From NCBI GenBank assembly GCA_039989895.1, contig JBDXGY010000003.1, forward strand, positions 21,141 to 85,140: a stretch of 64,000 nucleotides of DNA, given 5' to 3'. Numbering within the stretch: position 1 is the first letter of the stretch; each line of letters opens with the position of its first letter. This DNA is from Hyphomicrobiales bacterium (GTDB lineage: Bacteria; Pseudomonadota; Alphaproteobacteria; Rhizobiales; JACESI01). The notes beneath the pieces are model-generated. The model made no database searches and was not told where the DNA came from. It saw nothing but the letters and a program-made list of their open reading frames with translations. The position numbers and the translations under genes are program-made. Below are positions 3,796-62,973 of the stretch, one piece after another.

Positions 3796-5703
<1,908 letters not shown>

Positions 5704-45296: not shown

Positions 45297-45314
45297 CTCC
45301 ATAAGTCGGAGAAA

Positions 45315-45350
45315 ATGGTGGCGATTTTACTTCAGTAAAATCGCCACCAT
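45315..45350 (+). other. Perfect 15-bp stem-loop in the SBP-permease spacer (intra-operon attenuator/mRNA stabiliser candidate)
   Basis: ATGGTGGCGATTTTA-CTTCAG-TAAAATCGCCACCAT, 19 nt after the SBP gene stop. No U-tract follows. Confidence 0.5.
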
Positions 45351-45553
45351 ATAAAAATTAGCTTGGCAAATTTGATGTAGTTTTCTGAAATTTTAAATTT
45401 TGAGAACCATCCGCAAGATCAATCGATGGATGCTCCTTGATAGCAACTGCGCTCAAAAGATGTGAACTAAACTAGGGTCTTGGCAAAGTTAATTTTAGTC
45501 CAATACTGAGCACTCTAGTCACGAGGCGAATAACAAAAGACAACAGGATTGTA

Positions 45554-46441: not shown

Positions 46442-46518
46442 TATTAAAGCGTGAATACAAAGGTTTTTATTTCTTATGAATTTTACCAACACAAATAAAT
46501 CAGGAAGGCCGTTCACCA

Positions 46519-47355
46519 ATGGATAAGCCTAGATCACGGGGTGCCTTGAGCATTCAAAATGTGACTAAAATTTATGACCCTGAAGGGGTCAATGTAATGG
46601 CGGTTGATGACTGTTCAATGGAAATCGCCGCAGGTGAAGTCTGCATGATCGTCGGACCTTCAGGCTGTGGCAAAACCACATTACTTAACGCCATTGCTGG
46701 CTTTCACTCTGTCACCCATGGCCAAATCCTTATGGACGGAGAATTGCTGTGTGGTGGTGTAAAGCCAAAGGCCGATCAAGGGGCTGATCGTATGGTGGTG
46801 TTTCAACATGGGGCTTTGTTCCCTTGGAAAACGCTTACTGAAAATGTCGCTTATGGCCCTATGGTCCAAGGCATTTTAAATAAATCACAAGCAATGGAAA
46901 AAGCGCGCGATATGCTATCGGAAGCAGGCCTTGGGAACGTTACGGAAAAATACCCTGGTGAAGTTTCTTCGGGCATGGCACGTCGGGCCGAGATTGTCCG
47001 CGCCTTGATCAATGATCCAAAAGTCTTGTTGCTGGACGAACCTTACCGGGCAATGGATGCTCTCACTAAGTCAATCATGCATGAGGCGCTTCTTGAGACC
47101 TATGACCGCACGAAAGTGACCATATTTTTCATCACGCATGATCTAGAAGAGGCAATTTTCCTCGGTGACAAAGTGCATGTGGTTACGACCCGTCCATGTC
47201 AGTTAAAGAAGACTGTTGAAGTTAATATTCCACGACCTCGGTCATTCGAGACTCAATCCTCTGAAGAATTCCGTCTGCTGATGGAAGAGGTTAATGAAGC
47301 TGTGCATGAAGAGGCCATTAAAGCCTTTCAGGCTGGCGAACGTGAGATGGCTTAG
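46519..47355 (+). CDS. msmG: ABC transporter ATP-binding protein (NitT/TauT family), first of two
   Basis: Walker A GPSGCGKTT, signature-like VSSGMARR, and Walker B LLLDEP. Confidence 0.6.
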   Translation: MDKPRSRGALSIQNVTKIYDPEGVNVMAVDDCSMEIAAGEVCMIVGPSGCGKTTLLNAIAGFHSVTHGQILMDGELLCGGVKPKADQGADRMVVFQHGALFPWKTLTENVAYGPMVQGILNKSQAMEKARDMLSEAGLGNVTEKYPGEVSSGMARRAEIVRALINDPKVLLLDEPYRAMDALTKSIMHEALLETYDRTKVTIFFITHDLEEAIFLGDKVHVVTTRPCQLKKTVEVNIPRPRSFETQSSEEFRLLMEEVNEAVHEEAIKAFQAGEREMA

Positions 47356-47372
47356 GGGCGAAAGTAAAAATA

Positions 47373-48239
47373 ATGACCGATGCAACAGTAGAAAACAAAC
47401 CAGTGAGAGCAGAACCGGTACGCCGTTCAAAGCTCCAAAAACTAATCCAAAGCACAACATTTTGGCGTGGTGTTATATCAATTGTGACGTTTTTGATCCT
47501 ATGGGAAATAGGATCTCGGTTTGGTGAATTAACCGGTACAGGATGGGAATTACCATTTGTTGGAAAGATTCCACCTCCCTCCGCTGTTTTTGTCAGCTTC
47601 CTCGAAGTAATCCCTAACATTGGATATTGGAACAGCTGGCTCCAAAGCACCAAGCGGGTTATGTCAGGGTTTATTGCTGCCATGGTCCTTGGAATACCTT
47701 TTGGCCTCGCGCTTGCAGTTAATAAGTATTTTCGAGATATCTTTTTTCCACCCTTTGAGGTGCTGCGCCCTATCCCGCCTTTGGCTTGGGTTCCTGCGTC
47801 GCTTATCTTTTGGCCAACCAATGAAATGTCGATTGCATTTGTGACCTTCTTGGGTGCCTTCTTCACGATTGTGATTAATGTGATCGGTGGAGCACGTTCA
47901 ATTGATGTTCGCTATTTGCGAGCGGCCCAATCAATGGGTGCCTCACAATGGGATCTATTCAGTAAGATTATACTACCTGGAACATTGCCTTCCATCTTTA
48001 TTGGTGCCGCAGTTGGCATGGGTATTACTTGGGAAGTGGTTCTTGCCGCTGAAATGATTTCCGGCGGTGGCACACAGGGCGGTGGTGGCCTTGGGTTCTT
48101 TATCTGGAATTCTTACATCGGGGGCTCTTTGGAGCAGGTCGTTGTTGGCATGATTTCAATTGGTATAGCTGGTTACTTATGTTCTAGCGCCATCCGCGTA
48201 CTGGGTACTTTATGCATGCCTTGGCGCCGGCTATTTTAA
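47373..48239 (+). CDS. msmH: ABC transporter permease (NitT/TauT family), second of two
   Basis: 288 aa and paralogous to 45554-46441 (DVRYLRAAQSMGASQWDLFSKIILPGTLP). A glycine-rich loop GGGTQGGGGLG is unique to this copy. Confidence 0.6.
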   Translation: MTDATVENKPVRAEPVRRSKLQKLIQSTTFWRGVISIVTFLILWEIGSRFGELTGTGWELPFVGKIPPPSAVFVSFLEVIPNIGYWNSWLQSTKRVMSGFIAAMVLGIPFGLALAVNKYFRDIFFPPFEVLRPIPPLAWVPASLIFWPTNEMSIAFVTFLGAFFTIVINVIGGARSIDVRYLRAAQSMGASQWDLFSKIILPGTLPSIFIGAAVGMGITWEVVLAAEMISGGGTQGGGGLGFFIWNSYIGGSLEQVVVGMISIGIAGYLCSSAIRVLGTLCMPWRRLF

Positions 48240-48266
48240 GTTTAGATTTTTGGAGATAACGAAATT

Positions 48267-49139
48267 ATGCACGATCTATATGGAAAAATCTGCCGCGAAC
48301 CTGCCGAACGCAGGAACAGTGGTGACATAGAAAAGCAAAGTAAGATCGAAATTAAAAATCTCTCAAAATCCTATGGTGATGAATGGGAGTCAGAGCAGGT
48401 TTTAGAAAATCTGGACCTCATGGTGAACCCGGGTGAGATGACAGTTATTGTCGGCCCTTCAGGGTGCGGCAAATCTACTCTCGTCAATCTTATCGCGGGT
48501 TTTGAAAGCCCAGACGAAGGTAGCATCCTGCTGGATGAAAAGCAGATAACAGGTCCAGCGAAAGATCGGATGGTCGTGTTTCAAGAAACAGCACTCATAC
48601 CTTGGCAGACCACCTATCAAAACATCGTCTTTGGTCCAAAACTACGTGGCGATATCAAAGGGGCAGAACTTAAGAAGAGAACTGAAGACCTTTTAATCAA
48701 AGTTGGACTTGGTGAGTTTATGCATAAATACCCGTTGCAACTTTCAGGCGGGATGCAACGGCGGGCTGAGTTGGCGCGTGCTCTTATCAATGAGCCACGC
48801 GTGATGATTATGGATGAGCCGTTTCGTGGCCTTGATGCTATGTCACGCTCACTCATGCAGGAATTCTTCTTGCAACTGTTTGATGAAAACAAAAGAACCA
48901 ACTTGTTTGTTACCTCTGAAATTGATGAGGCAATTTTCCTAGCTGATAATTTGATTATACTTTCAAATAAACCCACGACGGTACGTAAAATTATTCGGGT
49001 TAATCTACCCCGTCCGCGTAACTATAAAATGCTTAGCTCACCTGAAGCTTACGAAATCAAACGTGAAGCAATGGAAATTCTCCATGAAGAAGCAATGAAG
49101 AACTTCAAGGGTACGGGCTCTGATGAGGCCGCTGGATAA
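48267..49139 (+). CDS. ABC transporter ATP-binding protein (NitT/TauT family), second of two
   Basis: Walker A GPSGCGKST, signature LSGGMQRR, and Walker B MIMDEP. Confidence 0.7.
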   Translation: MHDLYGKICREPAERRNSGDIEKQSKIEIKNLSKSYGDEWESEQVLENLDLMVNPGEMTVIVGPSGCGKSTLVNLIAGFESPDEGSILLDEKQITGPAKDRMVVFQETALIPWQTTYQNIVFGPKLRGDIKGAELKKRTEDLLIKVGLGEFMHKYPLQLSGGMQRRAELARALINEPRVMIMDEPFRGLDAMSRSLMQEFFLQLFDENKRTNLFVTSEIDEAIFLADNLIILSNKPTTVRKIIRVNLPRPRNYKMLSSPEAYEIKREAMEILHEEAMKNFKGTGSDEAAG

Positions 49140-49460: not shown

Positions 49461-49554
49461 TAAGACAAATAATATTAAGTGTTATTTGATCACACTGTTT
49501 GCTATTATTGAGTTTACTAGGTTCGAGAGTTTAAGTGTAACTGATGGCAAAAAA

Positions 49555-50277
49555 ATGCTGATTGAGGTAAGCGGACTGCATAAATCCTTTAAAGGACAAA
49601 TGGCGGTCAACAACGCAAATTTCTCCATTGAAAACCCTACTATTGTTGGCTTGCTTGGCTCTAATGGTGCTGGGAAATCCACCACCATGCGAATGATGGC
49701 TGGCATACTAAAACCTGACAGCGGTGTGGTGCGTATTGTCGGTCATGACATCATCAACGATCGCCTATCCGCACAAAGTAATCTTGGCTATCTTCCCGAA
49801 GCCGCTAGCGGGTTTTCAAATGTCACCGCGCTTGAATTTCTCAAGTTTGCAGCGAGTGCCCAAGCATTAGAAAGACAAGACCGCAAACACGCCGTAGAAG
49901 CTGTCATTGATCGTCTTGATTTGTCATCGATCACAGGAACGACACTTGGCACACTCTCTAAAGGCTGGCGGCAACGTGTCTGGTTGGCGCAGGCGCTCAT
50001 CCATGATCCCAGCGTCTTGATACTTGATGAGCCAACCGATGGCCTTGATCCCAATCAAAAACTCGTGCTGCGAAAATTGCTACAGGAAGTCGCAAAGACA
50101 ACCGCCATTATCATGTCCACCCATATTCTTGAGGAAGCGGAAAACCTTTGCGAGCAAGTGATTGTGATGAATGAAGGAAGCATAGTTGCTAACCTGCCCA
50201 CACAAGATTTGCTGGACAGCGAAGGGCGTTTAGCAACAGCTGTTCTAGATTTAACAACCTCACAAGTGGGGCACTGA
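49555..50277 (+). CDS. ABC-2-type transporter ATP-binding protein (GldA/CcmA-like)
   Basis: MLIEVSGLHKSF start, Walker A GSNGAGKST, signature LSKGWRQR, and Walker B LILDEPTDGLD. The start is taken at ATG 49555; the track's TTG start is at 49486. Confidence 0.75.
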   Translation: MLIEVSGLHKSFKGQMAVNNANFSIENPTIVGLLGSNGAGKSTTMRMMAGILKPDSGVVRIVGHDIINDRLSAQSNLGYLPEAASGFSNVTALEFLKFAASAQALERQDRKHAVEAVIDRLDLSSITGTTLGTLSKGWRQRVWLAQALIHDPSVLILDEPTDGLDPNQKLVLRKLLQEVAKTTAIIMSTHILEEAENLCEQVIVMNEGSIVANLPTQDLLDSEGRLATAVLDLTTSQVGH

Positions 50278-50284
50278 TATTTCC

Positions 50285-52897
50285 ATGGAGGATAAAAAGA
50301 CCAACACACCAATGATGCGCGGCCCACTTGTTTCAAACTGGTTTGAGCAAGTTTTTGCAATGACCAAGCAGGAATTGCAGCAACTTGTCTACACACCCAT
50401 TACATTGATTTTTCAATCCTGGTTTTTACTAGCTTTGAGTATATTGATATTCGCTGTTGCCGATTTCTTATCGACCGATCTCGCCACCTTTGATCTGTTA
50501 TGGACATTCTTACCTTGGGTTTCGATTGTCTTAGTTCCAGTGCTTGCCATGCGCGCTTTTGCGCAAAATATTGGTGACCGAGGATTTGAATTGCTTATGT
50601 CATTTCCAGTTTCAGATTCGGCGATTGTTGTCGGCAAATGGCTTGGCGGAGCTATTGTCTTAATTATAACGCTGGCGATGACTGCGCCCTTTATTGCGAC
50701 TGTTGCCTATCTTGGGTCTCCTGATTGGGGCATAGCTCTTTCTGGATACATCGGCGCAGCTCTTCTCTTAATCAGCTTTTATGCGCTCGCTCTTTTTGCA
50801 GCCTCTCTCACCCGTGATCAGGTGGTCGCTTATATATTATCCCTTAGTGGTTTAACGGTGCTGCTGATCTTGGGTTGGGACGTGGCCGCACGTACACTCG
50901 GCGGAACATTGCCAGATTGGGTAATAACAGCGCTCGTTCAGGCAAGCCCGAAGTTCTGGCTTGGTGAGATGTCGCAAGGCCAAATTCATTTGGCGGCCAT
51001 CATTTATTTTATCGGGCTAATTAGCTTGTGCCTTGTATTGACGATTAAGGTTCTCAAAGGACGCCGCATTGACAGCCCTGGGGCGCTCCATCCAGCATTC
51101 GGTATCTTAGGACATACTGGTTTATGCTTTTGTGTAATCGTTTTGCTGGGTGCGTCTGTGTCACATGTACCCTATGCGCTTGATATGACGAAGGACAAGA
51201 TATTCACTTTGCATCCTGAAACTATTCAAATAGCAAAGCAAACTCCAGATAATACAAAGATCGACTTTTATTATAGCAGCGATGAAAGCGCTATTCCGGC
51301 CAGCATCCGGCACCATGCCAAGAAGGTGAAAAATCTACTTGATGAGGTTGCGGGCCGTTCTAACGGTAAGATTACCATCGTTGAAAATTATATCGCACCG
51401 GATTCCTCTTCTGAAGAGCAGGCGCTTATATCTGGTGTGCGATCCATTCCCATGACTTCTGGCGATCAGTTCATGCTTGGTGCGGTTTTTCGGCAAGGAG
51501 ATCGTGAAAGCGCTATTTCATATTTTGACCAGCAGCGCGCTCAACTTTTAGAATATGATCTTGCTTTGATGATGAATTCGCTCAATCGTAAAAAGACGCC
51601 CCGCATCGGCATTCTTACCCCTTTATTAGCATCTAGCAACATAGACAAACCACGCGAAGGCTTTGCTATTTTTGAAGAAATTAAACGGCAATATGATGTG
51701 ACAATAATCCCGCATTTTCATGATCAACTACCAGAAAACTTAGATGTATTGCTTGTCGTTGATGCGCCAATTTTGAAAAAAAGTATGCTCTTATCGATTG
51801 ACCAGCACGTCATGAATAACCGTGGGTTGATCGCAATTCTTGACCCTTACCCTCGCTTCAACAGTGCGAATGCCCAGACCTCACCGCAGCCCTCTGAAGA
51901 AATAAACGATATATCAGATATTCTCGCAGCCTACGGAATAATCTATCAAGGGCCAATTGTAATTGGCGACAGCGAGCTAGGCGCACCCGTTGCTGGGGCA
52001 GATGGCAGACAATTAATCTATCCTTATTGGTTGCGCCCAAATCGACCCTCTATGTCAACGGCACACGGGACGACAGCGAGTTTGAATGAACTTTTATTCG
52101 CTGAAGCAGGATCTTTCAAAATTTCTAAAACCAGAGCTGAATTTGATCGATTGATTGTAACCGGCGAAAGCTCTGGCACCTTGCCAAGAGATAATTTCAA
52201 GCAAAAAGCACCGGGTTTTCTTGCAGCCCAATTCACGCAAGATAAAAGTATGAGTCATACAATTGCAGTGGCGATGCGTGGAGAAGCAACCAGTGCTTAT
52301 GGCGCTGATAATAAAGTCTCAGGTGAAGTTTCCTTCAAGAAGAAAACACAATCCGCAAATGTGTTTGCGATCGCCGATGCCGACTGGTTATTCGATCCAA
52401 TGGCTTTTCAAACTGTAAATAACGGCGGTCAAGAAGTGCGGCGACCGTTAAATGATAATGTTGCCTTTATACTGAATATGATCGAGTTTTCTTCAGGCGA
52501 CCCGAGATTGGTAGGCATTCGCTCACGTGGTGGGGCTCGGCACTCCTTCACCACAGTAGCCGACATTCTACAGGCGGGGCGAGATCGTTATGTAGCTCAA
52601 GAAGCTGATTACGCCAACCGGATCGCTAAATTGGAAGCAAGCATTTCAGAAGTTATGAGCCTGACAGGAGCAACCGACATCAGGCAATTACCAGATAATC
52701 TGCAATCTCAGATCAAGGAATTGAGAAAGAATATCCTGCCGTTTCGTCAAAACCTCAGAGAGATTAGAGAAAGAATGCGCGAAGATGTTGAGAAGTTAGA
52801 GTTTAAACTTAACTTCTTAAACTTCATTGCTGGACCGGTTTTAGCCGTCCTATTTGCAGCATTGGTGTGGGCGCGGCGGCGTAAAAAAACCCTCTAG
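50285..52897 (+). CDS. Fused ABC-2 permease (GldF-like, ~260 aa) + GldG-like auxiliary domain (~600 aa)
   Basis: The N-terminal six-TM region is ABC-2-like. Then come a TM segment, a [14 protein letters not shown]...IDFYYS...IAPD region typical of GldG N-domains, and a C-terminal coiled coil plus TM anchor ([22 protein letters not shown]). The start lies 8 nt after the ATPase gene. Confidence 0.65.
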
Positions 52898-54570
52898 AAG
52901 AGCCCTTCTACAAAGCCATTATCATCAAGCATGATTGCTTCAGCTGATGGGACACGCGGCAAGCCCGGCATGGTCATGATCTCGCCGCAGATTGCAACAA
53001 TGAACCCTGCACCGGCTGAAAGTCTAACTTCGCGAATTGGCAATGAATGGCCCGTTGGCGCTCCACGCAAGTTTGGATCTGTTGAGAAAGAGTATTGAGT
53101 CTTCGCCATACAGACTGGCAGGTTGCCATAACCAGCCTCTTCCCACTGATGCAATTGATTACGGATCTTCTTGTCAGCTAGAACCTCATCGGCACGGTAA
53201 ATACGCTTTGCAATGGTCTCCATTTTTTTAAACAAAGATATGTCATCAGGATAAAGAGGTGCGAATTGCGCGCTGCCTTTATCGATCATCTTTACAACCT
53301 TGTTTGCAAGATCTTCGGTGCCTTTTGAACCATGCGCCCAATGCTTACAAAGAACAGCTTCTGCGCCTTGTGTTGAAACATAGGCTTTGACAGCTTCAAC
53401 TTCTGCGTCCGTATCCGCGATAAAATGGTTGATCGCAACAATAACGGGAACGCCGAACTGTTTGATGTTTTCAATATGGCGGCCGAGGTTTGCACAGCCC
53501 TTCTTCACCGCATCAACATTCTCATTGTTCAAATCTCCTTTAGCAACACCCCCGTTCATCTTCATAGCGCGGACCGTTGCAACGAGGACAACTGCGTCTG
53601 GCGCAATGCCGGCTTTGCGACACTTGATGTTGAGGAATTTCTCTGCGCCCAAATCAGCACCAAAGCCTGCTTCTGTGACAACATAATCAGCAATTTTAAG
53701 CGCTGTTTTTGTTGCAACAACAGAGTTACAGCCATGAGCGATGTTAGCGAAAGGGCCGCCATGTACGAAGGCAGGATTGTTTTCTAATGTTTGTACAAGG
53801 TTCGGCTGCATCGCTTGCTGAAGAAGCACTGTCATCGCACCATCAGCCTTGATGTCACGACAAAAAACAGGCGTTTTGTCACGGCGATAAGCGACAATGA
53901 TATTGCCAAGCCGTTCTTGTAGATCTGCAAGGTCATTTGAAAGGCACAAAATGGCCATCACTTCTGATGCAACTGTGATGTCAAAACCAGCTTCACGAGG
54001 AAAGCCGTTGGAGACACCGCCTAGTGACGCTGTAATCTCACGTAGCGCGCGATCATTCATGTCCATGACACGACGCCAAACAACGCGACGCGTATCGATT
54101 TCAAGGCTATTGCCCCAATAAATATGATTGTCGATCATTGCTGATAGAAGATTATGAGCAGAAGTAATCGCGTGGAAATCACCTGTAAAATGCAGGTTCA
54201 TTTCTTCCATTGGCACAACTTGCGCATAGCCGCCACCTGCAGCGCCGCCCTTCATACCAAAACAAGGACCAAGTGACGCTTCACGTATACACACCGCCGT
54301 CTTTTTGCCGATGGCATTAAGACCATCACCCAGACCAACCGTTGTGGTCGTCTTACCTTCACCCGCAGGTGTTGGATTAATTGCCGTCACAAGGATAAGC
54401 TTGCCGTCCTTATTACCCTGAACTGACTTGATAAAGTCTTCCGAGACTTTCGCTTTGTCATGTCCAAATGGTAAAAGGTCATCACTACCAATTCCGAGTT
54501 TCGCACCTATTTCTTGGATTGGTTTTTTATTTGCTTCACGGGCAATCTGTATATCTGACTTAACGGTCAT
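52894..54570 (-). CDS. fhs: Formate--tetrahydrofolate ligase
   Basis: 558 aa. [16 protein letters not shown]-loop, full-length collinear with FTHFS. SD GAGGAAG. Confidence 0.96.
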
Positions 54571-54732: not shown

Positions 54733-55632
54733 TTATCCTTTAGCTTTTCCAATCTCTTCGAGTTTTTTCTCCCATTTCATAGCTTTTGCGAAGGTTTCAA
54801 GTTCTTCATCAGGCATATGAATTGTGTTTTCAGGACCAGGGTAATTCCGATTAACCACATCATCCATGTAACGAGTAATCACGTCTTCCATAATAGGAAT
54901 AAGGTCGGTGTATATGCGTGAATGTTTTGGAACATGCTCTTCCCAAAGATGGAAGAGATCTGATGAAATAATATGTACACCATCTGCGCAGTTACCTGCA
55001 CCAAGGCTGATAACGGGCACTGGCAAAATCTCTGCCAAATATTCAGCAACTTCAGATGTTGTCACTTCGCAAAGAATAGAGAAACAACCAGCATCATAAA
55101 ACGCTTTTGCATCATCTACCATTGCCTGTGCACTTTGGGCTGTTTTACCCTGAGCAACAAAACCACCAAGCTGAGGCATACGCATTGGTGTAATACCAAC
55201 GTGGCCTTGTACCGGAATACCCGCATTGACGATTGCTTCAATGTTTGGCGCATGATGGCGATTGCCTTCACACTTCATCACTTCAGCATTTGCTTGGTGT
55301 ACGAATTTACCAGCATTGTCGATTGCTTGCTCTTTAGAAACATGGAAGCTCCAGTAAGGCATATCAACCATACGCATACCGTATTGAGAACCACGATCAA
55401 TGGCTTGGGCCATCATCATGACTTCTTCAAAACTAACTGACACCGTGCTTTGGTGTCCAAACAAAATCATGCCGCCTGTATCTGACACACATAATATGTC
55501 CATGCCTAAACGATCCGATACAACCGCTGTTCTATAATCATATGCAGCAAGCTGCGTGATAGGCTCACCTTTTTTCATTTTCGCTTGTAGCGTCTTATAA
55601 GTAACTTTTTTTCTCTTAGCAGCCTGTGCCAT
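54733..55632 (-). CDS. 3-methyl-2-oxobutanoate hydroxymethyltransferase (PanB) family protein with a C-terminal extension
   Basis: AYDY ... VSDTGGM ... VDMPY ... MKCEGN ... GHVGITPM ... ILCEV align with the PanB Mg/catalytic motifs (VGDSLGM, ADLPF, VKIEGG, GHIGLTPQ, LVLECV). Strong SD GAGGGGAGG before ATG 55632. No panC is adjacent. Confidence 0.75.
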   Translation of the reverse strand: MAQAAKRKKVTYKTLQAKMKKGEPITQLAAYDYRTAVVSDRLGMDILCVSDTGGMILFGHQSTVSVSFEEVMMMAQAIDRGSQYGMRMVDMPYWSFHVSKEQAIDNAGKFVHQANAEVMKCEGNRHHAPNIEAIVNAGIPVQGHVGITPMRMPQLGGFVAQGKTAQSAQAMVDDAKAFYDAGCFSILCEVTTSEVAEYLAEILPVPVISLGAGNCADGVHIISSDLFHLWEEHVPKHSRIYTDLIPIMEDVITRYMDDVVNRNYPGPENTIHMPDEELETFAKAMKWEKKLEEIGKAKG

Positions 55633-55684
55633 ATTGGGCCTCCCCTCATAATAAATTATTGACTTTAGCCTCACCGAGACTATT

Positions 55685-56075: not shown

Positions 56076-57011
56076 ATGTTTTTGAGGCAATTCAAATATT
56101 TAATTGCAGTCGATAAGGAGGGGCACTTTGGCCGTGCTGCTGCGCATTGCAATGTGACGCAGCCAAGTTTGTCGAGCGGCATAAAACAATTAGAACTAGA
56201 ACTCGGTGTAACGCTCTTTAAAAGAGGGCGTGGACAAAGATTATATGGCACGACCCCAGAGGGCGAAGTTGTTGCTAAATGGGGCCGTCAAATTATCGCA
56301 CATTGCGATGCTATGTATGATGAAATTGCATCCATGCAAAATAACTTGAATGGCACGCTAAGAATTGGCGCTATGCCATCCATGTCACCCATCTTGCCGG
56401 TGATTTTACAAAGAATTAGAAATCTTCATCCAGACATCAAAATTGATGTAGAATTTATTGGTAATGACGCGATGAAAGTCGGCCTCGGTAATTTCACGCT
56501 CGACAGTGCAATTACCTATGTCGATAATGCTGATCTGGGTCGATGTGACGTATTGCCAATCTATACAGAGACCTTCAGTCTGCTTGTTCCGGATTCTTTC
56601 AAGTTTGAAAACCGCGAGGAAATCACCTGGAAAGAAGCCTCGGAACTGCCTTTAGCCATGTTGAGTCCCAATATGCACGAACGCCGATTTGTGGAAGAGG
56701 CATTTGCTAAATCTGGTTGTGATGTTGTGCCAAAAATTGAATCGCCTTCAATTTTGCATCTTATGTTTCAGGTGCAATTTACCGAACTTTGCACCGTTAT
56801 TCCTTCGCACTTTATCCGCATGCCGGGGCTACATGAAGGTACGAAGGCTTTACGCTTGATAGAACCTGAAGTTACTCAAGAAGTCGGCTTATTCTGGATT
56901 GAAGGTAAAACGGCTATGCCTATGACAAATATCATGGTTGATATTGCAACTAACCTCAACCAGTCAGGCGATCTGCGTAGTCTTCTCAGTGGCCCCAAAC
57001 AACGATCATAA
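56076..57011 (+). CDS. LysR-family transcriptional regulator
   Basis: N-terminal wHTH domain LRQFKYLIAVDKEGHFGRAAAHCNVTQPSLSSGIKQLELELGVTLFKR followed by a LysR substrate-binding domain. SD GGGGAGG. Confidence 0.85.
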   Translation: MFLRQFKYLIAVDKEGHFGRAAAHCNVTQPSLSSGIKQLELELGVTLFKRGRGQRLYGTTPEGEVVAKWGRQIIAHCDAMYDEIASMQNNLNGTLRIGAMPSMSPILPVILQRIRNLHPDIKIDVEFIGNDAMKVGLGNFTLDSAITYVDNADLGRCDVLPIYTETFSLLVPDSFKFENREEITWKEASELPLAMLSPNMHERRFVEEAFAKSGCDVVPKIESPSILHLMFQVQFTELCTVIPSHFIRMPGLHEGTKALRLIEPEVTQEVGLFWIEGKTAMPMTNIMVDIATNLNQSGDLRSLLSGPKQRS

Positions 57012-57016: not shown

Positions 57017-57844
57017 CTAATTAGCCAAGCGCTTGCGACAGTTAAGAATGCTTTTGCTCAAAAATAAAACCACATCATCATCACTCATATTGTCTGACGC
57101 AATGCGCTCAACAGGCAAAAGACTTGAAGCTTCAAAATCACCTGCCTCAGCCTCATCCTTCGTTGCTGTAAAAAAGAAGGGGGATGGGCGCAGTCCATCG
57201 CCAGCTGACAAGCCCATACGAATGGCTGGTGAGCCAAATCCTGGCTGTAAGTCGAGCTCTATGCCCAGATGGAATAGCTGCGGCCAGCAAATAACCGGTA
57301 TATCTGTTGAGGCAAGGAACCCATCTTCATTATTTTTGAGACTATCCGCAACAGCTGCGCATACTTCGGCTGAGTCACAAAAACAATCGTTCAATGCCGT
57401 GAGCTCATTAGAATATTGCTCGACTTCGTGTTCCTCACTATCACCCATCATCAGTTCTGTGCCGACATAAGGAAGAGTTTTTGAAAATTTCTCACGATCC
57501 ACACCACGATGCAGCAACTCTATCAAAAACCATGCCTCAACATGAGCCGGTGTTCGCTCTTGAAACGACAGTGTGTGGGGAACCGGAATATCATTTTCAC
57601 AAAACTGCAGCTCAAGTGTCTCAAGCCGCAGCTCGAGGGAATATTTAGACAAAAATTGTTTTGTTCTGATTGAACGCGCATTTGAATTCCACAGCAGTTC
57701 AATGTGACTATTTTTATCATCCGCCTCTATGTAGCTGTTGGCTATTCGCGCCATCCAATGCAAAGCATTTTGAGCTTGCCTGCGAGACGCTTTCATTTCA
57801 GTTGACTTAACCGTTAAAATTGATTGCCACTGCTGATTTTTCAT
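57017..57844 (-). CDS. Hypothetical acidic protein (275 aa), co-oriented downstream of msmD
   Basis: Longest ORF in this stretch, with GAGGA 9 nt upstream of the ATG and 71 nt after the msmD stop. No signal peptide or TM segment, and no family recognised. Confidence 0.5.
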   Translation of the reverse strand: MKNQQWQSILTVKSTEMKASRRQAQNALHWMARIANSYIEADDKNSHIELLWNSNARSIRTKQFLSKYSLELRLETLELQFCENDIPVPHTLSFQERTPAHVEAWFLIELLHRGVDREKFSKTLPYVGTELMMGDSEEHEVEQYSNELTALNDCFCDSAEVCAAVADSLKNNEDGFLASTDIPVICWPQLFHLGIELDLQPGFGSPAIRMGLSAGDGLRPSPFFFTATKDEAEAGDFEASSLLPVERIASDNMSDDDVVLFLSKSILNCRKRLAN

Positions 57845-57915: not shown

Positions 57916-58959
57916 TTAGCTAAATTTATCATAACGAATTTGCTGTGCTGAAAGACCCGCATTCACAATTAAAACACGGGTTGCCGCATCAACCATCGGG
58001 GCTGGGCCTGCAAGATAGCCGATCACATTGCTATTATCACCATCAACGCAACCTGCAGCAACGTCAGTGACAAACCCGCCCGCCAGCGTAATATCCGGAA
58101 AATCTGGATGAACTGACGCACTCGGCGCTTCATCAGATAGAACAAGGGTAACTTCAAGATTACCCTTTGCTTCTTTCATCATCGATGAAAGCTCGCTCAT
58201 ATAAAATGCATCTATTAAGGTTCTAACACCAAAAAACAGCTTTGCTTTTCGCTTTAAAAGATGCCCCGATCGCGTTGCATGATCTAAAATAGACATAATA
58301 CCTGCAATGCCAGAACCGCCGACGATGCATATAAGGTCTTTATCTTCCTCAGGATGGAATGTTGCCCTCCCCAGAGGACCAAAGAGTTTTAACTGGCTGC
58401 CTTTAATGTCATTTTCAAAAATCCAATCGGAAAATCCACCATTTGGATTGCGCTTAACAACAAAACTTATGCGATCTGTTGAAGAATCATAATTCACCAT
58501 AGAGTAAGCACGGCCACCAGTCAGATTTGGCGCTTCCACAACCATAAATTGGCCGGCTTGAAACGACAGATTCTCGCGCATAGCTATCTCATAATGGATA
58601 ACATCTGACGTCAGTTTTTTGACTACGTCCACTGTTCCGTGGTGCAATTTAGGTAATGTGTTTTTGTTTTGGTCATCTGGAGTATCGGAAGGCACGCGCA
58701 GCACGCAATCGCCATTTGCGCGCGTCTGACACATAAGTATATCGCCTTTATCAGCTTTGTAACGCGCCATGCCTGGTGCGTCAGTCCATGCCATATCGAT
58801 ATTTCCATCCATAACGCGGGCCCTACAAGAACCACAGGTGCCTGTCGCGCAATCATAGGGAAGTTTAAGCCCCGCCTTTAACCCAGCGAATAAAATAGGC
58901 TCATCTTCAGCCGTCTCAAATTTATACTCACCTGATTTGGATTGTAGCGTGATGGTCAT
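57916..58959 (-). CDS. msmD: Oxygenase reductase: N-terminal plant-type [2Fe-2S] ferredoxin + FNR-like FAD/NAD(P) module; candidate MSA monooxygenase reductase
   Basis: CATGTCGSC (C-X4-C-X2-C) with a later Cys, RAYS-type flavin motif (GRAYSMVN), and GGSGIAG NAD-binding loop. It is the last gene of the Rieske oxygenase operon. Confidence 0.72.
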   Translation of the reverse strand: MTITLQSKSGEYKFETAEDEPILFAGLKAGLKLPYDCATGTCGSCRARVMDGNIDMAWTDAPGMARYKADKGDILMCQTRANGDCVLRVPSDTPDDQNKNTLPKLHHGTVDVVKKLTSDVIHYEIAMRENLSFQAGQFMVVEAPNLTGGRAYSMVNYDSSTDRISFVVKRNPNGGFSDWIFENDIKGSQLKLFGPLGRATFHPEEDKDLICIVGGSGIAGIMSILDHATRSGHLLKRKAKLFFGVRTLIDAFYMSELSSMMKEAKGNLEVTLVLSDEAPSASVHPDFPDITLAGGFVTDVAAGCVDGDNSNVIGYLAGPAPMVDAATRVLIVNAGLSAQQIRYDKFS

Positions 58960-59000
58960 TTTATTGCAGCCTTTGAAGCTTGGTTTACATAGGCTGAGTA

Positions 59001-59378
59001 TCAGGAGAAAAAGTCATCGTCGCCTAGCTCATCTTCTTCTTCGAAGTCATAGAGCAATTGTTCCGTGACAAATGCCATAACATGACCATCTTCCACCTTA
59101 GCATCATAGGTTTTGAGAGGCTTTTCTGCTTCGCCCTTTAATTCCAAGGTTTCCAGATCCCACGCCCAAAGGTGCTTTGTGCACGTCAAAACGCAACCAG
59201 CGATGACGCCAGATTCTTCCAAAGGTTCTTCCATATGAGGACACACAGGCGGTAAAACGGTGTAACCATTCTTGTGGCGAGCCACAAGAACAGGAATTCC
59301 TCCCGCAGCGCCTGCCCAAAACTTTTTGACGCCGCCTTCAGTAACTTCGTCTGTGGTGCAAATCTTTGTCCAGCTCAT
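59001..59378 (-). CDS. msmC: Rieske-type [2Fe-2S] ferredoxin; candidate MSA monooxygenase ferredoxin
   Basis: 125 aa with CPH-X17-CTKH Rieske ligands and a very acidic C-terminus (DFEEEDELGDDDFFS). Confidence 0.72.
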   Translation of the reverse strand: MSWTKICTTDEVTEGGVKKFWAGAAGGIPVLVARHKNGYTVLPPVCPHMEEPLEESGVIAGCVLTCTKHLWAWDLETLELKGEAEKPLKTYDAKVEDGHVMAFVTEQLLYDFEEEDELGDDDFFS

Positions 59379-59501
59379 TGGTTTAATCCAATCCTTATAC
59401 TCATTGCCTTATCACTCGAGGCCTTATTATTCAGGGCATATTACTTAGAAGTTCGAGCTAATTTGGCATCATCTATCAAAATTAAATACAATCGATGTTG
59501 G

Positions 59502-59999
59502 TTAAATAGGCCAATGAGACCCTTTGTCCAAGCGACGGTTATCTAATTTAACTTCACGCTTGAGAAACTTCACTTGGTCATTTTCAATGACAAAATCATC
59601 AATATATTTGCCAACCAAAAACAGGCGGCTTTCACCTGAATCAATATGAGAATTATTACCATCAAGCATGTTTTGATAAACAACAAACGAACTCACTGCA
59701 CTGGCAGATTTACCATCCTCAGCCACATCAACTGTGTAAACGGATGTATGACGGCGCAAGGGAGAATGATCTGTATTGTGCTTAGGGAGCAGATCAATGA
59801 TGGATGTCATTTCCTTCAAGTCGCCCTCCATATAGATCATGTCTTTATTAATCTCTGGGCTGAAAGAGGTTATTATATAGTAGTAATCTTCACTACATAA
59901 TGCGAGCCAGTCGTGCCATTCCTGACCATCCAGTGCAATGGTTGCTCGATAAATCGTATCCCGAACTGAGTTAGAAATATCATAATTATTGTTTGGCAT
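59502..59999 (-). CDS. msmB: Ring-hydroxylating-oxygenase small (beta) subunit, SnoaL/NTF2-like; candidate MsmB
   Basis: 165 aa. The size, position and pattern (IYRATIALDGQEWHDWLALCSEDYYY ... RHTSVYTV ... GKYIDDFV) are typical of RHO beta subunits. Confidence 0.7.
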   Translation of the reverse strand: MPNNNYDISNSVRDTIYRATIALDGQEWHDWLALCSEDYYYIITSFSPEINKDMIYMEGDLKEMTSIIDLLPKHNTDHSPLRRHTSVYTVDVAEDGKSASAVSSFVVYQNMLDGNNSHIDSGESRLFLVGKYIDDFVIENDQVKFLKREVKLDNRRLDKGSHWPI

Positions 60000-60183
60000 T
60001 TATTATCATTCCCTGAGTGATGGCGAGGTCTTTTTGTCCGCCCGCCTTAACATGTTTGCTATCCGCTATATTTTTCATTTCTCATGCAATTGATAAGATA
60101 ATTGATCAATTTCTCATCAGCCAATGACTGCATTTTAAAGAAAAATGGTCACGTCGCAAAACTTGCTTTAATGACAGATGGTC

Positions 60184-60219
60184 GCAAGACCAGAAACCTA
60201 TTTTGGTTACAGGTCTTGC
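60184..60219 (-). other. Extended hairpin immediately after the msmA stop
   Basis: Outer stem GCAAGACC/GGTCTTGC and inner stem AACC/GGTT, 17 nt after the msmA stop. No U-tract follows. Confidence 0.4.
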
Positions 60220-60235
60220 ATCATTGTTGATTAAA

Positions 60236-61498
60236 TTATTCTGCTGCTTCCGCTTCGGCTGCGGCCGCTGGTGGAGAATATGGTTGATCCGGCGCACTTG
60301 GCAGACGGTCCATCCAACGACCCCATTCATCATAATAATGGCGCATACCATTTTCATCATGGATGGTTTGATTTTCCTGACGACCATGGAGAATACGGCG
60401 ATTATCCGTCTTCTCGCGCATTGTTGTCCCTTGACCGGTAACACCAATCAGGTCTTCATGCAGATTGCGACCGAATGGGCCCCAAATCGAGTTGTGGTGC
60501 TTAATTCTGGTAGCACGGTCCTCTGCGGAATCACTTTTTAAACCAAGCCCACGGAATTCAATCATCACTTTATTTGGACCTAATGGCGTAACCACATCGG
60601 TACGCAAGGCTGATCCGCGCAAGTTGAAGTTGAAGCCAGGGAACAGATCAATCATATACCACTGGTTCGGTGGCAAATGCGGGAATGACAATTCTGCGCG
60701 ACTTTCGAAGCCTTCGTAATTCTCGTAATTAACTTCAAATGAGCCGACAACGACATGGCCGTGGTCAAAGGCTTCATTTTTACGAGCAAAATAGGAATCA
60801 TTAAAACCGGTTACCCTATTATGGTAGTGCATGAAGTCGTGATAAAACTCACTGTTAGTATCATGCCATAACTTATAGTTCGTATCGATTATCGCTTTAT
60901 GATAATGGAAAACCTCAAGAGGCTCTTCATCAAGAGACTTTTGCAAGCACTCAAAAGGTTTGCCTGCCCAGTCTTCAAGAGAAACTGATGGATTATCGCT
61001 GAGGTTAACCCAGACAAAACCACCGTATTTTACTTCACAGCGAAGTCTGCGCAGCCCTACATCGGCTTTACACAAACGATCCTGATAGCCTTCTTCTTCT
61101 CTGGAGACATAGACACAATTGCCCTTCATGTCGAACTGCCAAGCATGGAACATACAAGTCATACGCTTAGGGTTGCCTGATGGCTGACCTTCCATAAAAC
61201 TTCCAGATGGACGCCGCTCAATAAGCATACCACGGTGAGGGCAAACATTGAGGAATGCTCGCACTACCTTGTCGGGACCACGTGTTATTATGATGGGCTC
61301 ATTAGCAATACTTGTGGTGCGGAAGTCATAAGGCTCAGGAAGCTCAGATTCATGGCAGACCGGCACCCATACCTGTTTGAAAATTTTCGAATTTTCTTCT
61401 TCAGCAATAGTCTCATCAGAATAAACGCGACTATCGATCCACTCGCCTTTTTCAAGCTTTGGGTCCGCTGTCCATTGTTTGTTATTGCGTGCGGGCAT
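60236..61498 (-). CDS. msmA: Rieske oxygenase large (alpha) subunit with CXH-X26-CXXH centre; candidate methanesulfonate monooxygenase hydroxylase MsmA
   Basis: 420 aa. CPH-RGMLIERRPSGSFMEGQPSGNPKRMT-CMFH gives a 26-residue spacer by my count. Catalytic-domain His cluster NSEFYHDFMHYH. SD GGAGA 6 nt upstream. Followed by beta-subunit, Rieske ferredoxin and reductase genes. Confidence 0.78.
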   Translation of the reverse strand: MPARNNKQWTADPKLEKGEWIDSRVYSDETIAEEENSKIFKQVWVPVCHESELPEPYDFRTTSIANEPIIITRGPDKVVRAFLNVCPHRGMLIERRPSGSFMEGQPSGNPKRMTCMFHAWQFDMKGNCVYVSREEEGYQDRLCKADVGLRRLRCEVKYGGFVWVNLSDNPSVSLEDWAGKPFECLQKSLDEEPLEVFHYHKAIIDTNYKLWHDTNSEFYHDFMHYHNRVTGFNDSYFARKNEAFDHGHVVVGSFEVNYENYEGFESRAELSFPHLPPNQWYMIDLFPGFNFNLRGSALRTDVVTPLGPNKVMIEFRGLGLKSDSAEDRATRIKHHNSIWGPFGRNLHEDLIGVTGQGTTMREKTDNRRILHGRQENQTIHDENGMRHYYDEWGRWMDRLPSAPDQPYSPPAAAAEAEAAE

Positions 61499-61826
61499 AA
61501 GTCATCTCCTAAATGTTTCAGCTATCCATCTATTTAAACTGCAAGATCGCTCCTGAACTCACAGACACCAATAGACAGCTGCCTCCAAATGGTAACCTAA
61601 GATACCAAGATCATAATATATCTCTGCACCTAAAGATTTTCATAGTATCTAACTTTAACATAGGTAAGTCTTCTACTGCTACAGATTATACAATCAAAAC
61701 CATCTATTAGATTATCGAAGCTATAAATCATTATTATATGAGAATATCTGCAAAAAATATCTACTTAAAACAATAGCTTAAAAAACAACCTCAAAATAGC
61801 TTTGCGGCAAAAAGAACATGCAACCT

Positions 61827-62912
61827 CTACTTAACGTTCACTTCAACGCGCGCAACTCCATTATTACCCACGCCGTAAAAAGTAACGACTTGCTCAAGTG
61901 GTTGTATATTACCTTTTGAATCCGTTGCTCGAGAAACCAGCGTATGTTTTCCAGGGGTGGCCTGCCATTCATAATTCCAGCCGCGCCATGCAAATTCACC
62001 AATGGGTTCTTCCAGCGATGCGTCATTCCAAGTTTTACCATCATCTGCACTTACTTCGACGCGCGATATCTGATTTTTCCCAGCCCATGCACGGCCCGTT
62101 AAGGTGACAGGGCCAGGCTCTAAACGACGCTCAAGTGATGGAAATGTAGAAACACCTGGAGGCGCCATCAATGCGCGCACTTTAATCGTCTCAATCGCAG
62201 TTCCCGCATCTCCTGCACCACTGGTTTCGCGATAAAATATCATCTGCATGCCATTGAAGGCCTCAGTGACAACTTCTATTTGATTAAGCCATTTTACGCT
62301 TGTCATTCCATACCAACCTGGAACAAGGAGGCGAAGCGGATAGCCATGTTGCGGCTCAAGGGGGGCGCCATTCATTTCATAAGCCAGAATTACTTCATCG
62401 TTCATCGCATCAGCAATGGTAAGAGAGCGTTGATAATATTGGTCTTCTCCTGATTGTATTCCTCTATCTGCACCCGTAAACAGCACCTCTAAAGCGCCAT
62501 CAGCAAGACTAGCTTCTTCCAAAATACCTTTAAGAGGCGTGCCAGTCCATAAAGCTGTACTCACAGCGTCATGCGTCCAAGGCTGGTTTACAGGGCGCGG
62601 TTTCATGAAAGCGCGGCCATTTCCGGCGCATTCCAAAGTCACTGGCATTTTGACGGCTGGTCGTTTCTTGATGTCATCAAGGTCCAGTTTAATCGACTTA
62701 TTAACATGCCCACCAATGTCCAATTGCCATGTGCTGGAGTCTACAACAGGAATATCCCAGTGATTAAGGAGATAGTGCATGCCTGTAGGTGTAATCGGCA
62801 TACGAAGTCCCTCTGCCGGTATTCCGCGATTTCTGAACGCAAGCTGAACTTCTTGAAACTCAAATGTGTTCTCACTTGTATGGCCGCCCTCACTTACAAG
62901 AACATCAGACAT
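61827..62912 (-). CDS. Sulfite-oxidase-family (SUOX-fold) molybdopterin oxidoreductase, no signal peptide
   Basis: TLECAGNGR contains the Mo-ligand Cys (compare CAGNRR in sulfite oxidases). GYPLRLLVPGWYGMTSVKW lies in the Oxidored_molyb core, followed by a C-terminal Ig-like dimerisation domain. The ATG at 62912 is preferred (AAGGGGA 5 nt upstream) over the one at 62927. No RR/Tat motif and no hydrophobic leader. Confidence 0.78.
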   Translation of the reverse strand: MSDVLVSEGGHTSENTFEFQEVQLAFRNRGIPAEGLRMPITPTGMHYLLNHWDIPVVDSSTWQLDIGGHVNKSIKLDLDDIKKRPAVKMPVTLECAGNGRAFMKPRPVNQPWTHDAVSTALWTGTPLKGILEEASLADGALEVLFTGADRGIQSGEDQYYQRSLTIADAMNDEVILAYEMNGAPLEPQHGYPLRLLVPGWYGMTSVKWLNQIEVVTEAFNGMQMIFYRETSGAGDAGTAIETIKVRALMAPPGVSTFPSLERRLEPGPVTLTGRAWAGKNQISRVEVSADDGKTWNDASLEEPIGEFAWRGWNYEWQATPGKHTLVSRATDSKGNIQPLEQVVTFYGVGNNGVARVEVNVK

Positions 62913-62973
62913 TTTCTTCCCCTTCATGATTTTACTGGATTGTTTTTAACTTTGGTTTGGAGCAAAGACCCGA

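Follow-up and report, generated by a model that had tools for sequence, protein, structure and literature searches.

A probable methanesulfonate monooxygenase gene cluster, msmABCD, and its gene neighbourhood in a Hyphomicrobiales bacterium

We analysed a 64,000-nucleotide stretch of DNA from a Hyphomicrobiales bacterium ("the window" refers to this whole stretch). Four co-oriented open reading frames (ORFs) can be read directly on its minus strand at 57916-61498, with the sizes given in the original prediction: msmA, encoding a hydroxylase alpha subunit (420 aa, 60236-61498); msmB, encoding a hydroxylase beta subunit with an NTF2/SnoaL-like fold (165 aa, 59502-59999); msmC, encoding a Rieske-type [2Fe-2S] ferredoxin (125 aa, 59001-59378); and msmD, encoding an NADH-dependent reductase (347 aa, 57916-58959). 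Each assignment draws on the ORF and its Pfam matches, together with motifs and clade membership for msmA, synteny for msmB, and a motif and synteny for msmC and msmD. MsmA matched Rieske (59 bits) and Ring_hydroxyl_A (34 bits); MsmB matched SnoaL_4 (35 bits) and scored slightly below the cut-off of 27 for Ring_hydroxyl_B (25.8 bits); MsmC matched Rieske; and MsmD matched Fer2, FAD_binding_6 and NAD_binding_1. The best NCBIfam matches of MsmD, BenC and MmoC, were both below cut-off. The motifs previously noted in the electron-transfer proteins were present: CPH-X17-CTKH in MsmC, which has an acidic C-terminal tail, and CATGTCGSC (C-X4-C-X2-C) in the N-terminal plant-type [2Fe-2S] domain of MsmD, after which come FNR-like domains that bind FAD and NAD. 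Upstream of msmA lies an AT-rich 328-nt stretch with an AGGAG ribosome-binding site (61499-61826, minus strand), presumed to be the promoter and regulator-binding region. Promoter-like matches in this stretch were not commoner than in shuffled sequence, and we therefore assigned no promoter.

The Rieske motif of MsmA reads CPH-RGMLIERRPSGSFMEGQPSGNPKRMT-CMFH (residues 86-118), with C86/H88 and C115/H118 as ligands and the predicted spacer of 26 residues (X26). The spacer of ordinary Rieske oxygenases had been put at roughly 15-18 residues; most indeed have 16-18, although spacers of X20 and X23 are found as well. Conservation of X26 in orthologues had been proposed as a check, and the spacer is present in 118 of the 120 best MsmA homologues. 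The nine inserted residues are near-invariant; these homologues share a near-invariant RRPSGSFxEGxPSGNPK insert, and the insert of the window protein matches their consensus.

A second proposed check asked whether the alpha subunit falls with MsmA or in another oxygenase clade; by sequence identity and a neighbour-joining tree, it lies inside a tight MsmA clade. The window protein shares 68-88% identity with about 200 homologues, many of them named methanesulfonate monooxygenase large subunit by JGI, and 81-84% with MsmA of Filomicrobium insigne (81-83% for this species), Methylobacterium oxalidis, M. nodulans pMNOD01 and Hyphomicrobium. Outside Msm, the nearest full-length oxygenases share 25-38% identity with it, and their spacer is the usual X17. 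In the tree, which was built from distances only and without bootstrap support, the window MsmA is nested among Filomicrobium, Hyphomicrobium and Methylobacterium sequences, and a long branch separates the MsmA clade from the X17 outgroups. These three genera include isolates that grow on methanesulfonate. X26 has been described as the signature of MsmA in all strains with demonstrated growth on this compound (Henriques & De Marco 2015, PMC4433239), and MsmA sequences of isolates grown on methanesulfonate (MSA), all with X26, are 84.4-99.3% identical to one another (PMC4433239). Since MsmA of Methylobacterium strain P1 is >99% identical to that of Methylosulfonomonas methylovora M2 (PMC4433239), we estimate, through the Methylobacterium orthologues, that the window protein is about 82-84% identical to M2 MsmA. 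Gene spacing in the F. insigne locus exactly equals that in KM879220 of Filomicrobium strain Y (compared with Table 1 of PMC4433239), a strain enriched and isolated on MSA (PMC4433239). In a 91%-identical metagenome contig (L084), MsmA is 99.3% identical at the protein level, and the two msmA genes differ at 93 synonymous and 3 non-synonymous codons; msmA is therefore under ongoing purifying selection.

The catalytic-domain motif EFYHDFMHYH was found at MsmA residues 217-226. It had been read as H-X3-H or H-X5-H rather than H-X4-H, and the classical oxygenases in our alignment do show H-X4-H. The MsmA clade is invariant at H220, H224, H226 and D349; three of these residues (H220, H224 and D349) coincide in the alignment with the outgroups' ligand positions. 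The closest X17 relatives of MsmA have H-X3-H in the alignment, which points to H220 and H224 as iron ligands. The predicted ligands of MsmA are H220, H224 (or H226) and, as the carboxylate, D349 (in HED), and the 2-His-1-carboxylate mononuclear iron site is kept.

We compared gene content across 80 msmA-related genomic loci. msmA is followed by msmB in 79 loci (59-75% identity), by msmC in 76 and by msmD in 75. The three neighbours named in the original prediction, a sulfonate-type ABC importer, a SUOX-family enzyme and fhs, were all recovered in the window. The importer genes lie on the plus strand at 44193-49139: msmE, encoding an SsuA-type binding protein with a Sec signal peptide (44193-45296); msmF, a permease (45554-46441); msmG, an ATPase (46519-47355); msmH, a permease (47373-48239); and, as a fifth gene, a second ATPase (48267-49139). 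With a periplasmic binding protein of the SsuA type, a pair of permeases and an ATPase, all in linkage with msmABCD, the importer has the composition of MsmEFGH. Genes for MsmEFGH and the second ATPase occur in 56-61 of the 80 loci, where they are usually divergent from msmA, and their products are 48-91% identical to those of the window. In the window they are followed on the plus strand by the two genes of an ABC-2 type transporter, one for a GldA-like ATPase (49486-50277) and one for a GldF/GldG-like fused permease and auxiliary protein of 870 aa (50285-52897). This pair follows the importer genes in 24-27 of the 80 loci and also in Filomicrobium strain Y (PMC4433239 Table 1).

The gene at 61827-62927 (minus strand) encodes a SUOX-fold molybdoenzyme of 366 aa with Moco-binding and dimerisation domains (Oxidored_molyb, 198 bits), which is probably a sulfite oxidase or dehydrogenase. 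Its scores against the NCBIfam SoxC, SorA and SorT models (222, 217 and 183 bits) are far below the cut-offs of 420, 600 and 570, and its best solved relative is SorA (2blf). No signal peptide was found, even in the longest possible ORF, and no cytochrome c gene is adjacent. The enzyme belongs to a widespread signal-less group of 360-370 aa and shares only about 33% identity with the SoxC-like proteins found in other msm loci. The SUOX-msmA-msmB order is the same in L084, the closest relative and the only one in which this SUOX type is msm-linked; the gene for a 79%-identical homologue is not. Sulfite-handling genes also accompany msm in relatives, which favours the assignment, but they are of varying type, with SoeABC-like genes in one locus (L001), TauE in another (L045), and TauE, a Moco enzyme and a cytochrome c in the msm locus of pMNOD01.

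Further along the minus strand, fhs (52894-54570) encodes a formate-tetrahydrofolate ligase of 558 aa (NCBIfam 940 bits, cut-off 652). Immediately upstream of it is a gene for a 313-aa protein of the ketopantoate hydroxymethyltransferase family (54733-55674, minus strand; Pantoate_transf, 269 bits). The latter scores just below the NCBIfam cut-offs (204.3 against 207.55 for TIGR00222; 244 against 272 for PRK00311), but it keeps the fold, and its residues at the aligned positions of the E. coli PanB active-site Asp, Asp, Lys/Glu, His and Glu are conserved; on sequence it is best called PanB-like. Its gene is found in 37 of the 80 loci (median 81% identity), and the protein shows stronger conservation than MsmB, MsmC or MsmD. 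The PanB-like gene followed by fhs recurs in three loci (L066, L072 and L076), and panB-fhs-folD in L082.

A LysR-family transcriptional regulator (56076-57011, plus strand), assigned from Pfam and NCBIfam profile matches and synteny, probably regulates the msm genes. Its orthologues occur in 50 of the 80 loci (57-74% identity) and adjoin, wherever it is present, the gene for an uncharacterised 275-aa protein. In the window, 72 nt separate this gene (57017-57844, minus strand) from msmD, which lies upstream of it, and it faces the LysR gene tail-to-tail. The 275-aa protein, noted for its linkage to msm across loci, has no match in Pfam, NCBIfam or the solved structures of the PDB, and its AlphaFold pLDDT is 91. 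It has only 55 homologues, all named ones called 'hypothetical'. The gene is present in 43 of the 80 loci, a family member lies in the M. nodulans msm locus, and homologues at 32-38% identity still lie in msm loci; it represents an msm-linked family.

MsmABCD is known from Methylosulfonomonas methylovora M2 and Marinosulfonomonas methylotropha TR3 (de Marco et al. 1999; Baxter et al. 2002, as summarised in PMC4433239). The original prediction had cited the spacer and four-component make-up as reported for M. methylovora. As in the window, these systems have an alpha subunit, a beta subunit, a Rieske ferredoxin and a reductase with FAD and [2Fe-2S], in identical order, with CXH-X26-CXXH in the alpha subunit and an associated msmEFGH-type importer. 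They differ in gene G+C (46% in the window against about 60% in M2 and TR3; S3 Table of PMC4433239) and in the importer, which in the window is neither divergent from msmA nor adjacent, lying 8.8 kb from msmD on the opposite strand. Filomicrobium strains Y and W (KM879220; PMC4433239) have nearly the same set as the window: msmABCD, msmEFGH, the extra sulfonate-type ATPase, the ABC-2 pair (2.6 kb and 0.7 kb), LysR, the PanB-like gene and a molybdenum sulfite dehydrogenase. In the window, however, the order is rearranged, fhs is present, no GcvT-like or TauE gene is nearby, and the SUOX enzyme is signal-less and without a SoxD cytochrome partner. We counted the match of the wider neighbourhood to the published strain Y msm region in favour of MsmABCD.

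Gene content, motifs, clade membership, synteny and signs of purifying selection make it highly likely that the locus codes for a functional methanesulfonate monooxygenase (MSAMO, MsmABCD) of three components and four polypeptides, and the sequence evidence supports the proposed cleavage of methanesulfonate, a sulfur compound abundant in the atmosphere and the sea, to formaldehyde and sulfite. The cluster is an ordinary intact copy of an already known four-gene system. Points against this reading are the position of the importer, 8.8 kb off and not divergent from msmA, the msm linkage of this SUOX type in L084 only, and the generic naming of MsmA orthologues. By analogy with the M. methylovora enzyme and other Rieske oxygenases, MsmD would be reduced by NADH through FAD and its plant-type [2Fe-2S] cluster and would pass single electrons to the Rieske ferredoxin MsmC, which would in turn reduce MsmA's Rieske cluster within the MsmA/MsmB hydroxylase. 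O2 would be activated at the mononuclear iron of MsmA and the methyl group of CH3SO3- hydroxylated, and the hydroxymethanesulfonate product would give formaldehyde and sulfite. The gene neighbourhood suggests roles for the remaining proteins: methanesulfonate may be taken up by the MsmE binding protein and the ABC importer of MsmFGH plus the second ATPase, the signal-less SUOX-fold enzyme, whose gene is just upstream of msmA, may oxidise the sulfite, the C1 unit may pass through tetrahydrofolate by way of the PanB-like protein and then Fhs, and the LysR protein may regulate the set.

We also weighed whether an enzyme of this family might have another role or substrate here, namely mainly sulfur scavenging, or action on other short sulfonates such as ethanesulfonate or C2-C3 hydroxy-sulfonates, rather than methylotrophic growth on methanesulfonate. 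Serine-cycle or other C1-assimilation genes were not found within the window, and the purified M2 enzyme reportedly accepts a few short-chain sulfonates, both of which fit such a role. A Burkholderia plasmid protein (51% identity) has the X26 spacer in a different gene context, which holds no Rieske ferredoxin gene; spacer length alone therefore does not prove substrate. The X26 sister clade to which it belongs adjoins genes for a lactaldehyde dehydrogenase and an MFS transporter, suggesting that another sulfonate substrate is possible in this fold. However, the window protein is only 47-51% identical to the sister clade and belongs to the core MsmA clade. The PanB-like gene and fhs beside the cluster, with gcvT, folD and formate dehydrogenase genes in related msm loci, point to handling of a C1 product, and the presence of a dedicated sulfite oxidiser speaks for the dissimilation of surplus sulfite, not assimilation. 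We consider another role or substrate unlikely.

Far less probable is a benzoate-, anthranilate- or phenylpropionate-type dioxygenase, in line with the generic aromatic ring-hydroxylating label that standard pipelines give to orthologues. The curated NCBIfam collection has no model for MsmA, and RefSeq labels MsmA orthologues generically ('aromatic ring-hydroxylating dioxygenase subunit alpha' in M. nodulans). MsmA has its best NCBIfam matches in the models for anthranilate, 3-phenylpropionate and benzoate dioxygenase large subunits, but at 89-98 bits where the cut-offs are 670-830; among solved structures, terephthalate and biphenyl dioxygenases come closest, but with E-values of only 1e-27 or weaker. 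Batie class III oxygenases such as naphthalene dioxygenase share with MsmABCD the electron-transfer architecture, the alpha/beta hydroxylase and the 2-His-1-carboxylate site. In contrast, they and the other Rieske oxygenases aligned are 25-38% identical to MsmA and lack its nine-residue Rieske-loop insert, the classical ones use H-X4-H rather than H-X3-H (or H-X5-H), and MsmABCD would perform monooxygenase chemistry on an aliphatic C1 sulfonate. No gene of an aromatic pathway, such as one for a cis-diol dehydrogenase or a ring-cleavage enzyme, is nearby; sulfonate uptake and sulfite oxidation genes are there instead. Clade membership and gene context effectively refute the aromatic assignment.

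Least probable of all, the cluster might be a remnant of horizontal acquisition, decaying or silent and without function today: G+C is 0.444 at 44-63 kb against 0.479 elsewhere in the window, the genes are ordered differently from those of most relatives, with the importer set apart, and a resolvase gene flanks L084, but all reading frames are intact, every metal ligand is kept and the codon differences in msmA indicate purifying selection.

The proposed methanesulfonate monooxygenase also differs from MsuD and SsuD, flavin-dependent enzymes that convert methanesulfonate or other alkanesulfonates to aldehyde and sulfite (PMC8234197). These have an unrelated, luciferase-like fold, depend on FMNH2 and serve sulfur scavenging. 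The window cluster contains no MsuD/SsuD-type gene, and one lies near msm in a related locus (L081).

Four co-oriented open reading frames (ORFs) on the minus strand of the window were read in the original prediction as a methanesulfonate monooxygenase (MSAMO), and our ORF reading matched its coordinates exactly: msmA (60236-61498), encoding a 420-aa alpha subunit; msmB (59502-59999), a 165-aa beta subunit; msmC (59001-59378), a 125-aa Rieske ferredoxin; and msmD (57916-58959), a 347-aa reductase. A regular-expression check recovered all three of the motifs claimed for these proteins: CPH-(26 residues)-CMFH from residue 86 of the alpha subunit, CPH-X17-CTKH in the ferredoxin, and the plant-type CATGTCGSC (C-X4-C-X2-C) near the N-terminus of the reductase. 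Pfam placed Rieske and Ring_hydroxyl_A domains in MsmA, SnoaL_4 in MsmB (with Ring_hydroxyl_B slightly below cut-off), Rieske in MsmC, and Fer2, FAD_binding_6, and NAD_binding_1 in MsmD. No NCBIfam model reached its cut-off for any of the four proteins. RefSeq names for all four orthologues on Methylobacterium nodulans plasmid pMNOD01 (locus L087, 9001-12609) are generic: aromatic ring-hydroxylating dioxygenase alpha, NTF2 family protein, Rieske domain protein, and 2Fe-2S-binding protein. With no Msm models in NCBIfam and generic names in RefSeq, standard annotation misses the methanesulfonate pathway.

We had two sources of MsmA homologues: (i) a search of 5.8 billion proteins, which gave 1353 matches at E <= 1e-10; and (ii) a scan of one genome per species, which gave 271 relatives. 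The best 120 of the 1353 matches are 68-83% identical to the window MsmA almost end to end, and JGI has named many of them "methanesulfonate monooxygenase large subunit". The best 80 of the 271 relatives are 78-88% identical. These 80 are drawn from Geminicoccales and Puniceispirillales MAGs, Filomicrobium insigne, Hyphomicrobium, Methylobacterium, Hansschlegelia, Microvirga, Chelatococcus, and many Xanthobacteraceae MAGs. The 26-residue spacer between the two Rieske ligand pairs (X26), which the original prediction took as the hallmark of MsmA, is conserved at the same length in 118 of the best 120 matches, and the remaining two have no complete motif. Its consensus among these 120 is nearly constant (RGMxIERRPSGSFxEGxPSGNPKxMT). 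Distant relatives were sought, without a profile, among 1.8 billion cluster representatives; the full-length proteins returned, at 25-38% identity, have a 17-residue spacer (X17) and, now and then, X16, X18, X20, or X23. In a MAFFT alignment, X26 differs from X17 by a clean nine-residue insert between the ligand pairs, SGSFMEGQP in the window MsmA, where the terephthalate-type dioxygenase structure 7vju has a gap. A neighbour-joining tree addressed whether the window protein belongs with Msm or with another oxygenase clade: it lies inside a tight X26 clade, adjoining Puniceispirillales and Geminicoccales sequences and close to those of Filomicrobium, Hyphomicrobium, and Methylobacterium, and a long branch sets this clade apart from the X17 proteins.

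Published work ties the X26 motif to growth on methanesulfonate. Every strain shown to grow on this substrate has it, and X17 proteins annotated as MsmA have no supporting data (Henriques & De Marco 2015, PMC4433239). Filomicrobium strain Y, isolated on methanesulfonate, has its msm region coordinates in Table 1 of that study, and the msmA-msmB-msmC-msmD offsets of F. insigne (L020), whose 423-aa MsmA is 81-83% identical to ours, equal the strain Y values (PMC4433239). M. nodulans pMNOD01, listed among msmA carriers in S3 Table (PMC4433239), encodes an 83% match to the window MsmA, again with X26. The strain Y region comprises genes for LysR, TauE, GcvT, PanB, SoxC, and SoxD, two ABC genes, an extra ATPase, msmHGFE, and msmABCD (PMC4433239); the window shares this list almost entirely, whereas gene order differs. 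MsmA proteins of isolates are 84.4-99.3% identical among themselves and 70-75% identical to Sargasso Sea sequences (PMC4433239). At 46%, the gene G+C content of the window msm copy is lower than in the cultured strains (55-62%) and higher than in the Sargasso Sea type (36-38%).

One protein limits what can be read from the spacer. A Burkholderia sp. RPE67 plasmid p3 protein (L086, 6998-9771), 51% identical to MsmA and annotated as such, has X26 with a divergent insert. Its gene set consists of alpha subunit, beta subunit, and reductase, without a Rieske ferredoxin gene, and its neighbours are a lactaldehyde dehydrogenase, an MFS transporter, and a sigma-54 regulator. Because this X26 protein sits in another gene context, spacer length alone is no proof of substrate, and the Burkholderia sister clade may act on another sulfonate. 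The window MsmA agrees with Msm beyond spacer length, on insert sequence, clade, and gene context. The NCBIfam matches of the four proteins are all far sub-threshold (anthranilate, phenylpropionate, and benzoate dioxygenase subunits, BenC, and MmoC). The PDB holds no MSAMO structure, and its top match for MsmA is a terephthalate-type dioxygenase (E = 2e-27). We considered an aromatic dioxygenase and rejected this reading, as we did that of a pseudogene remnant. Sequence, phylogeny, and synteny support well the original interpretation of the window msmABCD genes as a methanesulfonate monooxygenase cluster.

Oxidation of dimethyl sulfide yields methanesulfonate as a major product, and methanesulfonate turnover is followed with msmA as a marker gene. 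Descriptions of the msm system date back to 1999, and marine and soil genomes are already known to carry it. The window cluster is a further member of this system, adding one more lineage, with msm on an alphaproteobacterial chromosome; the cluster itself leaves existing knowledge unchanged, and the by-products of our analysis are modest leads, not discoveries. Those of possible use to pathway researchers are the annotation gap, a five-gene importer, variable sulfite modules, and two conserved companion genes.

The original prediction drew attention to EFYHDFMHYH in the catalytic domain as offering H-X3-H or H-X5-H, and alignment upheld this observation: H220, H224, and H226 are invariant across the MsmA clade, whereas the pattern in the aligned classical oxygenases is H-X4-H. 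In the nearest X17 relatives the spacing is H-X3-H, with no histidine at the H226 position, which favours H220 and H224 as the predicted iron ligands of MsmA. The carboxylate ligand region lines up with D349, part of a conserved (H/P)ED.

We assessed synteny by tblastn of the window proteins against 80 msmA loci, the best 80 of the 271 relatives. Directly after msmA come msmB in 79, msmC in 76, and msmD in 75 of them. The closest metagenome contig (L084) is 91% identical to the window in DNA over 3.5 kb and likewise has the order SUOX-msmA-msmB. Its MsmA is 99.3% identical to that of the window, with 93 synonymous versus 3 non-synonymous codon differences, indicating strong purifying selection on msmA.

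The importer, msmEFGH plus a fifth gene (44193-49139, plus strand), encodes an SsuA-family binding protein with a Sec signal peptide, two permeases, and two ATPases; its genes occur in 56-61 of the 80 loci. The fifth gene, a second sulfonate-type ABC ATPase after msmH (48267-49139, plus strand), is likewise present in 56 of 80, so the "msmEFGH" importer is usually a five-gene system, with a pair of permeases, a pair of ATPases, and a single binding protein. The importer is followed by an ABC-2 pair (49486-52897, plus strand), a GldA-like ATPase and an 870-aa fused GldF/GldG-like protein, which also occurs in 24-27 of the 80 loci and in Filomicrobium strain Y. A LysR regulator gene (56076-57011, plus strand) has counterparts in 50 of 80.

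Upstream of msmA lies a gene for a 366-aa SUOX-fold Moco enzyme (61827-62927, minus strand). Taking the longest possible ORF, we found neither a signal peptide nor a cytochrome c partner, and the enzyme is probably cytoplasmic. In length the protein is close to mature SorA (366 vs 373 residues), and the alignment starts at query residue 45 and SorA residue 46. It scored far below the NCBIfam cut-offs for SoxC, SorA, and SorT, and is one of a large group of proteins 360-370 aa long, few of them named; the names given are sulfite oxidase, SoxC, or YedY-type subunit. This SUOX type is msm-linked in L084 and not in a 79%-identical homologue. Other loci carry different sulfite-disposal genes. In the closest genome (L001), whose MsmA is 88% identical, msmD is followed by a SoeABC-like set (6026-10686) with molybdopterin, 4Fe-4S, and DmsC-anchor proteins; Xanthobacteraceae-type loci have two TauE exporters (L045, 14894-18997); and pMNOD01 has TauE, a Moco enzyme, and cytochrome c (L087, 12637-15267). 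The sulfite-disposal module varies among close msm relatives, being SUOX, SoeABC-like, SoxCD-like, or TauE.

For two conserved msm companions, no part in methanesulfonate catabolism has been assigned. The first is a PanB-like gene (54733-55674, minus strand) directly upstream of fhs (52894-54570, minus strand). It occurs in 37 of the 80 loci, with a median identity of 81% versus 51-65% for MsmB, MsmC, and MsmD. The protein keeps the residues aligned with the E. coli PanB active site and scores slightly below PanB cut-offs. The order panB-like, fhs recurs in three loci (L066, L072, and L076), extended by folD in a fourth (L082), and L045 has tauE, gcvT-like, panB-like, and tauE, divergent from the LysR gene. 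This context suggests tetrahydrofolate-linked handling of the C1 product. Speculatively, the PanB-like protein, which in related loci has GcvT-like, Fhs, and FolD partners, might pass the hydroxymethyl group of the hydroxymethanesulfonate intermediate, or free formaldehyde, to tetrahydrofolate. Such channelling would take the place of reliance on spontaneous hydroxymethanesulfonate breakdown; near neutral pH, dissociation of the formaldehyde-bisulfite adduct is slow.

The second companion, a gene for a 275-aa protein (57017-57844, minus strand), follows msmD after a 72-nt gap and is tail-to-tail with the LysR gene. It is present in 43 of the 80 loci and keeps the tail-to-tail arrangement wherever it occurs; in 28 of these 43 it directly follows msmD, and in most others the LysR gene stands in between. 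A weak hairpin separates it from msmD here, and the two may be co-transcribed. No Pfam or NCBIfam family was assigned, and a Pfam scan of 29 family members, relaxed to E up to 10, yielded noise only. Our searches found 55 homologues, every named one "hypothetical". All cases examined are msm-linked, including the most distant members (32% and 38% identity), and the hypothetical protein of the pMNOD01 msm locus is a further member. A confident AlphaFold model (pLDDT 91, pTM 0.90) has two alpha-beta-alpha halves, with no match in a Foldseek search of the PDB (best E = 0.15, TM about 0.2). Invariant residues include H90, E103, H112, R113, D135, and D216. "orfX/orfY putative regulators" are mentioned for Marinosulfonomonas methylotropha TR3 in the Fig 1 legend of PMC4433239, and our protein may be one of these. 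As a new msm component it could, speculatively, be a LysR co-sensor or a factor acting on the hydroxylase or the product. That the 275-aa protein, the PanB-like protein, or both are undescribed dedicated msm parts beyond MsmABCD and MsmEFGH strikes us as a rather unlikely, tentative proposition.

The remainder of the window is housekeeping (thiC, dapDE, pckA, polA, trpFBA, recQ, addAB-like genes, ahcY, chvGI, and an hprK-like gene), which places the msm locus on a chromosome and in an alphaproteobacterium. The G+C content of the msm region (window 44-63 kb) is slightly lower than elsewhere (0.444 vs 0.479). Upstream of its SUOX gene, L084 has a serine recombinase (resolvase) gene (988-1542), where the window has a TadE-like gene. 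The resolvase gene and the lower G+C content hint that the msm region was once mobile or has been rearranged. Promoter-like matches were no more frequent than in shuffled sequence, and none was assigned. An inverted-repeat search upstream of msmA gave one short palindrome, and no LysR site was assigned. Rfam and tRNA scans returned nothing within the msm region. Terminator-like matches numbered 17 against a shuffle mean of 10.5 (sd 3.2), about two standard deviations higher. Outside the msm region, thiC (3883-5703) is preceded by a TPP riboswitch (3652-3807, plus strand), which scored 64 bits (gathering score, 54).
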